Of a stretch of DNA of 39,990 nucleotides, positions 31,867 through 32,526 are shown piece after piece. Made by a program: the position numbers and the translations under genes. The notes under the pieces are model-generated. The model made no database searches and had not been told where the DNA came from. It saw only the letters and a list, made by a program, of their open reading frames with translations. This DNA comes from a virus (lineage: Duplodnaviria; Heunggongvirae; Uroviricota; Caudoviricetes): the IMG/VR virus record IMGVR_UViG_641736163_000010; one strand, given 5' to 3'. Positions within the stretch are counted from its first letter, which is position 1. Every line of letters starts with the position of its first letter.

Positions 31867-32057
31867 AGCCCCTCCGGAGAGGGGCTGGAGAGTGGCGCTA
31901 TGTGCCATTGCATGGTGCCGGGTGCCTCCCGGTGAATTCAGTACCAGCACCTGAATCCGCGATTATCCCATATACCTACTCGCTGATTACCCCTCCGCAC
32001 AGGGGGATTCACCATGCGAAATTTTTTAACAAACTTCCCGCCGGCCAGACAATAATC
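31867..32057. repeat. Copy A of a ~190-bp duplicated element beginning with palindrome agcccctccggagaggggct
   Basis: Shares blocks gcatggtgcc..gg.gcctcccggt.aattcag, gggggattcaccatgcga and ttttaacaaa.ttc.cg..g.cagccagacaat.atc with copy B at the same offsets from the palindrome. Confidence 0.65.
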
Positions 32058-32100
32058 GCCAGCCTGAATTATGAGCAACGTGGCATTTTACGGGAAAACT

Positions 32101-32125
32101 GTTTTCTGCAGTAAAAAGGCCCGCC
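32101..32125 (-). terminator. Terminator-like hairpin (minus strand GGCTCGC-tccg-GCGGGCC + TTTTTAC)
   Basis: Read from sequence; one mismatch in stem. Confidence 0.35.
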
Positions 32126-32320
32126 GGAGCGAGCCTGGAAGGATAGCGGTCATGTGATGCCGGTTTCCCGGTAACTCAGCATCGGTATCTGAGTCAACGT
32201 TTTCTCTACTGGGTCATTTCCGATACGTTCCGCCTTCCGGCAGACTTTCATCACGTCAGAAAATATAGCACCCTGAGTAACAGGACAGTACTCAGAATTC
32301 AGGAAACTGTGACACATCCT

Positions 32321-32349
32321 GCACAGAAAAGCCCCTCCGGAGAGGGGCT
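32321..32349 (-). terminator. Intrinsic terminator formed by the copy-B palindrome (8-bp GC stem + TTTTCTG on minus strand)
   Basis: agcccctc-cgga-gaggggct with A-run on the plus-strand 5' side. Confidence 0.45.
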
Positions 32350-32526
32350 GAAGTATAGCCTAATTTCTGTCTGTCGCATGGTGCCAGGGGCCTCCCGGTA
32401 AATTCAGCCTGTCTACTGAATTTGCATGTTCTCTGGATCATACACTTTGCCAGATGCCCCGCCGCTGAGGGGGATTCACCATGCGATGTAATTTTTAACA
32501 AATTCTCCGGCAGCCAGACAATCATC
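32330..32526. repeat. Copy B of the ~190-bp duplicated element
   Basis: See copy A; internal inverted repeat aaattcag-N8-ctgaattt corresponds to gaattcag-N9-ctgaatcc in copy A. Confidence 0.65.

Follow-up and report, generated by a model that had tools for sequence, protein, structure and literature searches.

An array of three probable STnc100-family small RNA genes in the late region of a lambdoid prophage

The repeats analyzed here are most plausibly three adjacent small RNA (sRNA) genes, lying on the minus strand in the order B-C-A and belonging to the prophage family that comprises STnc100, EcOnc27, and PasD, a reading to which we assign a probability of roughly 0.8. They are members of an already described RNA family, real and largely ordinary, and what we add to the published accounts is modest: a third copy, a start site, the occurrence of arrays, and a pseudoknot. 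Family membership, the RNA structure and its covariation, the genomic context, and the promoter-like and terminator signals were established in this analysis. All coordinates refer to the window, i.e., the whole stretch of 39,990 nucleotides that was analyzed.

Identity and number of the copies

A scan against Rfam gave full-length matches to RF02076 (STnc100) for copy A (32045..31857, minus strand; 132.5 bits, E = 4.3e-30) and copy B (32514..32321, minus strand; 138 bits, E = 1.7e-31), both of which exceed the gathering score of 47 bits taken as the limit of family membership. A further match on the same strand, copy C (32285..32110), lies between them with 30 bits (E = 7e-4), below the gathering score, and does not qualify as a member by itself. 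The initial annotation had described two related elements here, and this is well beyond chance, with E values near 1e-30 for both and 148 identities in the 204 columns of their global alignment (72.5%), but it had overlooked the third. A repeat finder recovered the conserved blocks of A and B in the same order and the palindrome three times. Our own covariance model, R1, found exactly three copies in the window, scoring 98.7 bits for A, 83.7 bits for B, and 30.1 bits (E = 7e-6) for C. In addition, the published STnc_100 qPCR primers, designed on the copy of an Stx2 phage, match copy A exactly (31997-32016 on the minus strand and 31924-31943 on the plus strand).

Copy C shares 59% identity with A and 56% with B. 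Its helices carry compensatory changes (P1 GUGAUG/CAUCAC, P2 UCUGCC-GGAA-GGCGGA, Y GACUCAG/CUGAGUU, and P5 CCGG-GAAA-CCGG), and since every helix is kept with different letters, we consider it a diverged paralogue and not debris. A weak middle copy of this kind recurs at six other loci (L137, L155, L173, L179, L195, and L157), always as a strong-weak-strong triplet. The features of the three genes are collected in Table 1.

Table 1. Coordinates and elements of the three predicted RNAs and of the promoter-like sequences preceding them
Feature	Position	Strand	Elements	Basis
Copy B promoter-like element	32492..32521	-	-35 TTGTCT (32521..32516), 18-nt spacer, TG-n-TAAAAA extended -10 (32500..32492)	Read from sequence, PasD2 analogy, family statistics
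Copy B RNA	32321..32484	-	P1, hairpin P2, helix Y, hairpin P5, variable tail GACAGACAGAAAUUAGGCUAUACUUC, terminator stem 32349..32330	Rfam, R1, terminator scan
Copy C extended -10	32262..32270	-	TGCTATATT, 7 nt upstream of GUGAUG (P1 5' strand)	Inferred from sequence only
Copy C RNA, diverged paralogue	32110..32256	-	Terminator stem 32136..32117, then U5	Rfam, R1, alignment, fold, pseudoknot search
Copy A promoter-like element	32023..32052	-	-35 TTGTCT (32052..32047), 18-nt spacer, TG-n-TAAAAA (32031..32023)	Read from sequence, PasD2 analogy, family statistics
Copy A RNA	31857..32017	-	P1 GCAUGGUG/CACCAUGC, P2, pseudoknot, helix Y, P5, tail AAUGGCACAUAGCGCCACUCUCC, terminator stem 31887..31866	Rfam, R1

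Conserved secondary structure

A scan of IMG/VR with a core motif gave 120 loci and, once the full-length copies were extracted, 105 distinct sequences in 23 clusters. This data set was chosen with the P5 pattern, and the invariance of P5 in it is partly by construction. RNAalifold, run on a MAFFT alignment of 43 diverse cores to which no structure had been fitted, recovered the four helices of the family consensus: the closing helix P1, hairpin P2 (CCCCC...GGGG), helix Y, and hairpin P5 (CCGGG-AGGCA-CCCGG). The covariance model R1, derived from the MAFFT/RNAalifold alignment, found 135 copies in 100 loci. Among 97 distinct sequences, 92.5% of the cells were paired, compared with 42 to 48% when the partners were slid, and double changes were seen at all six pairs of helix Y and at four of the seven of P1. 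A single pair of helix Y illustrates the extent of the replacement, being GC in 32 cases, AU in 27, CG in 16, UG in 11, and UA in 7. All three window copies form these covariation-kept STnc100 consensus helices. Two sets of unpaired bases, the AAU after P1 and the U..GC of the P2 loop, are nearly invariant and had played no part in the selection of sequences.

Helix Y is the internal inverted repeat of the initial annotation. In copy A it pairs 31958..31951 with 31941..31934, and the difference between the copies is as described originally, reading on the RNA strand GGAUUCAG/CUGAAUUC in A and AAAUUCAG/CUGAAUUU in B. It amounts to one full compensatory change (G-C to A-U) together with one G-U to A-U change, and the G-U pair is possible only on the minus strand. 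The suggestion that selection acts on RNA structure was correct, and 6/6 pairs of this helix covary across the family. Single-sequence folding energies were 1.6 to 2.5 standard deviations below those of shuffled sequences and did not separate the strands; being weak and alike on both strands, they are unusable as evidence, which made the comparative analysis necessary.

A more distant class, found at four loci (L122, L131, L187, and L209), shares P1, P5, and the pseudoknot described below and has a different P2 (UGCG..CGCA). These loci lie outside late regions, near cI-like repressor/integrase or portal genes, and the two that were scanned with Rfam (L122 and L131) score below its gathering score.

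A pseudoknot in the 5' core

The segment directly 3' of P2 can pair with the loop of helix Y, and both sides covary across clusters (CCAGUC/GACUGG, CCAGCC/GGCUGG, CCAGAC/GUCUGG, CAGCA/UGCUG, CAGUU/AACUG, and AAGGUUG/CAACCUU). In copy A, AUCAGCG (31987..31981) pairs with UGCUGGU (31949..31943) and in copy C, UAUCGG with CCGAUG, while the pseudoknot of copy B is weak, with 4 bp only; PasD2 keeps it as AUGAUC/GAUCAU. Because misalignment of the loop in the covariance-model alignment blurs column-wise detection, we relied on a test of six fixed pairs and on an alignment-free permutation. In the covariance-model alignment, which was built blind to this pairing, the six pairs were 73.9% paired against 23 to 46% when slid, and their covariation score was 0.44 versus 0.17 at most, with none of 500 shuffles reaching the observed value. 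The alignment-free statistic was 5.80 versus 3.77 ± 0.16, and none of 20,000 permutations attained the observed value. The pseudoknot is absent from the nested consensus of RF02076 as displayed by cmscan, nor is one mentioned in the preprint comparing PasD and STnc100 (10.64898/2026.05.13.724894).

Promoters and transcription start

The RNA-seq-based 5' end of PasD2 (NC_011601:741157) coincides with the G of GCAUGGUGAAUCC, at which P1 begins, and follows TTGACT-N18-TAAAAA. The promoter-like elements of copies A and B end 5 and 7 nt, respectively, before the G of GCAUGGUG; for copy C, no -35 was recognizable on reading the sequence. Across the family, promoter-like hexamers (score ≥9) were found at the P1 anchor in 52% of 96 distinct upstream regions, compared with 0.8% at random anchors, and textbook promoters stand at this distance in diverged relatives (e.g., TTGACA-N18-TAAATT and TTGAAA-N17-TAAATT). 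The promoters of A and B are mediocre, with TTGTCT and TAAAAA and no T at -7, and a strict sigma-70 promoter scan called none on the minus strand, the A, B, and C sites included; the assignment draws on the PasD2 5' end and the anchored family statistics. In Salmonella LT2, RpoD occupancy has been reported at STnc100 promoters (PMC10794520).

By analogy with PasD2, each copy would be transcribed independently, from about 32484 (B), 32255 (C), and 32017 (A). A start at the first base of P1 implies that the first ca. 30 positions of RF02076 are probably promoter DNA and not RNA. Transcription together with the late operon, as had been proposed, is probably not the main route, given a promoter-like element for each copy and a start at the closing helix as in PasD2.

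Terminators, tails, and modularity

A terminator scan called a minus-strand intrinsic terminator at the end of each of the three copies (Table 1), confirming the U-rich tract noticed after the palindrome on that strand. The palindrome itself, AGCCCCUCUCCGGAGGGGCU, had been taken for the start of the element; with the minus strand as the functional one, it is the Rho-independent terminator at the 3' end. The U-tracts are short, with four or five U (UUUUC in B and UUUUU in C), and that of A is interrupted (GUUUAUAUU). Describing the elements as tandem terminator modules was correct insofar as each gene ends in an intrinsic terminator within the path of the late operon, but it is only half the answer.

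Between P5 and the terminator, the tails of A, B, and C are unstructured and mutually different, and none of the three contains the PasD seed UGUGAG or the PasD terminator GGCUGCGCAUUGCGCAGCC. At three IMG/VR loci (L174, L143, and L165), a core nearly identical to that of copy A is followed by a PasD-like tail and terminator (..UUAUCCCUUUAUUUCCGGCUGCGCAUG), from which we conclude that core and tail recombine as separate modules. A and B share a stretch of 20 identical nt in their terminators though the genes are only 72% identical, and these terminators resemble helix P2 (CCCCCU..GGAGGGG); given both observations, alternative pairing or gene conversion is possible.

Genomic context and distribution

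The array occupies the moron slot of the late region of a lambdoid prophage. This slot is where Stx phages carry stx. Following the minus strand in an annotated copy of the region, the array is preceded by RusA, Q (PF03589), a small ORF, a DNA methyltransferase, tRNA-Ile(CAT) (also listed as tRNA-Ile/Met(CAT)), tRNA-Arg, and DUF3927, and it is followed by an IraM-like ORF on the opposite strand, a SASA-family esterase of the NanS-p type, a holin, DUF1327, a lysozyme, and a lysis protein. The array itself lacks annotation there. A 1.7-kb stretch is 99.9% identical to many Escherichia coli chromosomes and is covered to at least 80% in 1,009 of 5,426 complete genomes, plus four phage records.

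Most model matches were single genes (90), together with 8 pairs, 8 triplets, and 2 quadruplets, and adjacent copies were mostly spaced by 206 to 267 nt (228 and 239 nt in the window). Arrays of three or four STnc100-like genes ca. 250 nt apart were seen at L129 (2321-3353), L184 (4377-5462), L138 (342-1038, followed by a tRNA), and L146 (1723-2346). Pas copies are stated not to be tandem (10.64898/2026.05.13.724894), so that arrays seem to belong to the STnc100 family at large, a trait not stressed before. A motif scan of genome contigs with the 14-mer ATGGTGAATCCCCC was uninformative, since the motif is too short; it returned almost only chance matches in unrelated phyla, and one from Atlantibacter (L056) was alone real.

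Several further features were recorded. Convergent with the array is an ORF of 111 amino acids (31496-31831, plus strand) that PGAP names anti-adapter protein IraM and for which Pfam gave no match; in Stx phages, the convergent sRNAs AsxR/AgvB occupy this position. Beside the DUF3927 ORF, a 35-nt stretch (32724-32758) is 77% identical to part of tRNA-Arg (32815-32849) and is probably the relic of a third tRNA, as Stx phages carry ileZ-argN-argO; ARAGORN and Rfam called two tRNAs only, with no third. The late promoter and leader of the window lie at about 34510-34592 (minus strand), directly after the Q stop, with TTGATT...TAAATT and a lambda-like TTGCTCTAACGATGGG motif. The leader, of ca. 65 to 75 nt, with the tR' hairpin (34531..34516) followed by T7, is the positional counterpart of StxS and much shorter than the 258-nt StxS precursor. 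Far from the array, at 1378-1576 (minus strand), there is a full-length match to IS009 (RF02111, 221 bits). Finally, the Hfq-binding RNA isrI (RF01392) has matches overlapping a 75-aa ORF at L128 (5465-5560) and L144 (8139-8235), on the minus strand in both, between the PR'-tR' module and the STnc100-like RNA.

Proposed mode of action and alternatives

What we say here about expression, Hfq binding, and the position of the seed comes from the literature on homologues, whereas the expression and targets of copies A, B, and C and the role of their conserved 5' domain are what we infer. Each gene would be a self-contained unit with a sigma-70-type promoter, a 5' domain of ca. 105 nt, a short copy-specific single-stranded tail, and a Rho-independent terminator. 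From the first base of the transcript, the 5' domain would consist of P1, P2, helix Y, the loop of which would form the pseudoknot with the segment after P2, and P5. Homology with PasD and EcOnc27 predicts that every unit yields an sRNA of ca. 145 to 165 nt in the lysogen, that Hfq binds it through the terminator and U-tail, and that it pairs with its targets through the variable tail. As the seed of PasD lies in the tail and the three tails differ, A, B, and C are expected to have different targets. The three terminators, placed between the tRNA/DUF3927 genes and the nanS-p/lysis cassette, should also stop ordinary read-through and be passed by Q-modified polymerase.

That last point can be turned into an explanation of its own, in which the role is in cis: in the lysogen, a triple terminator or insulator of the late operon would keep read-through from the constitutive tRNA/DUF3927 region or a leaky PR' out of nanS-p and the lysis genes, and the RNAs would be by-products. 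This fits the clustering of three minus-strand terminators in a 500-nt stretch immediately ahead of the esterase-holin-lysozyme block; other phages carry an STnc100-like RNA just upstream of the holin, often followed by more terminators, and StxS is a precedent for a terminated RNA in the late region. However, ca. 30 nt suffice for a terminator, which has no need of a covarying, pseudoknotted domain of 105 nt, and a promoter-like element per unit would be superfluous. Nor would insulation of a late operon account for family members outside late regions (L122, L131, and L209). We regard this as an unlikely account of the whole, although cis insulation is compatible with the sRNA reading as a secondary role.

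With respect to the 5' domain, our best guess is that it serves as a stabilizing or factor-binding module. Near-invariant and pseudoknotted, it exceeds what a plain base-pairing sRNA needs and leaves room for a separate function. The conserved core could itself be the functional part, a folded domain that resembles an orphan riboswitch aptamer in its architecture and would bind a protein or small ligand in the manner of a decoy, sponge, or sensor; tail and terminator would be exchangeable. The junction of several helices closed by P1 with its covarying pseudoknot would agree with this, as would the near-invariant unpaired bases in it, the combination of the same core with terminators and tails that are unrelated (among them a PasD-like tail behind an A-like core), and its presence in several phage types and genomic contexts. 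Against it, the core resembles no riboswitch or ribozyme family in Rfam at E ≤ 1, PasD, in spite of its incomplete P5, is abundant as an Hfq sRNA and has many partners in RIL-seq, and the constancy of P5 was partly built in by the way in which the sequences were selected. We consider this, too, improbable as a replacement for the sRNA reading. A broader formulation seems somewhat less doubtful and is offered tentatively: the 5' core may represent a structured RNA domain, widespread in phages, that has its own function (protein or small-molecule binding, or a nuclease-resistant cap) and onto which exchangeable seed-terminator tails are grafted, in arrays of two to four differently tailed copies.

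We consider it highly improbable that the repeats derive, as relics or variants, from a small protein-coding gene, read either from the plus-strand ATG behind AGGGGGA or from minus-strand ORFs. Short frames behind this Shine-Dalgarno-like sequence do exist, as had been pointed out (MRNFLTNFPPARQ and MRCNF, each closed by a stop), PGAP annotates copy A with a pseudo "hypothetical protein" on the plus strand, and ribosome footprints have been recorded on some STnc100 copies of EDL933, with RCV up to 3.2 (PMC5331693). The frames, however, have 13 and 5 codons, diverge after codon 2, and run antisense to the RNA; their ATG is complementary to P1 (CAU) and AGGGGGA to P2. At the position of the ATG, most relatives have CAC/GUG (pair 6/166: GC 50, AU 35). 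The frame in which long minus-strand ORFs cross the conserved block is not the same in A as in B, numerous indels with lengths that are not multiples of 3 separate the copies, and the variation tracks base pairing and not codons. No reading frame was shared by the copies and retained in the homologues, and the idea of a gene relic is not supported. The RefSeq/PGAP feature over copy A, at about 31902-32027, is the antisense of the RNA, and another pseudo "hypothetical protein" covers PasD2 in E2348/69 (L242, 1098-1339, minus strand). Both look like artifacts of unannotated sRNA genes.

We likewise give almost no credit to the elements being PR'-tR' late leader RNAs, counterparts of lambda 6S RNA or StxS, for which their length of ca. 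190 nt, their terminator, their position downstream of Q, and the promoters of several diverged relatives (TTGAC-N17-TAAATT, resembling lambda PR') might speak, because PR' and tR' of the window are found directly after Q, ca. 2 kb upstream of the repeats, and at L128, L144, L183, and L216 PR'-tR' also follows Q, the STnc100-like RNA being a separate downstream unit upstream of the holin. This candidate was rejected for this Q type, the true PR'-tR' module being separate in the window and in these four related loci.

Comparison with known systems

A review ranks STnc100 among the most frequently annotated bacterial sRNAs and lists its function as "-" (PMC9029176); copies adjoin Shiga-toxin genes, and variants of such copies have been linked to the risk of HUS (PMC12711010). 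The correct annotation of the window is three minus-strand sRNA genes with putative promoters and terminators of their own, and not a plus-strand pseudogene. The initial annotation had included paralogous small RNAs among its options, and by Rfam A and B are indeed STnc100 sRNA genes. Previous work has regarded the family as a plain base-pairing sRNA, and the start at P1, the arrays, the core-plus-tail modularity, and the pseudoknot could guide experiments.

With the Rfam family, first listed from Salmonella, copies A and B share the helices, the terminator, and the location in prophages; the differences are that copy C falls below the cutoff and that the first ca. 30 positions of the model are apparently promoter DNA. 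Published data document transcription of its members: 11 STnc100 copies are transcribed in EDL933, one of them positive by Northern blotting (PMC5331693), and a copy 75 nt after stx2B was detected in outer-membrane vesicles by qPCR (PMC12370729).

Hfq-crosslinked sRNAs are known from the same slot (Tree et al. 2014), among them EcOnc27, located 3' of stx2B and in convergent orientation to AsxR (PMC4104026). The STnc100 annotation and EcOnc27 overlap, and overexpression of EcOnc27 is reported to raise fimZ and espA transcripts (PMC12711010). In E. coli O157:H7, EcOnc27/sRNA103 agrees with the window array in family, in strand relative to PR', and in its slot between Q and nanS-p. Unlike there, the prophage of the window has no stx, the array follows the tRNAs and DUF3927 instead of stx2B, there are three copies, and the convergent partner is the IraM-like ORF and not AsxR or AgvB. 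Neither of these two sRNAs (AgvB/AsxR, RF02702 and RF02703) had a match in the whole window at the gathering threshold or in 30500-34500 at E ≤ 1.

PasD2 of EPEC E2348/69 lies in the identical slot of a prophage with Q (PF03589), where DUF3927 is followed by the sRNA and the SASA esterase. PasD1 and PasD2 are abundant, verified by Northern blotting, and stabilized in an Hfq-dependent manner (PMC8550237), and a 2026 preprint relates PasD to STnc100 (10.64898/2026.05.13.724894). The PasD2 RNA begins with the same GCAUGGUGAAUCC, its helices P1, P2, and Y and the pseudoknot are preserved, and its promoter stands at the same distance as in the window copies. PasD differs in that it occurs singly, lacks the 3' half of P5, and has its own tail, with the seed, and its own terminator. 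A PasA-like sRNA was not found in the window with the published probe sequence as the query.

StxS of the Stx phages is a terminated, Hfq-binding RNA from a lambdoid late region made in lysogeny, a class to which the window sRNAs would also belong by analogy; however, StxS is the PR' leader itself, while the repeats are unrelated in sequence to the PR'-tR' leader of their own prophage. Set against the published accounts of STnc100, PasD, and EcOnc27, a promoter for each copy, arrays of two to four copies, and a covarying pseudoknot appear to be the additions of the present analysis.
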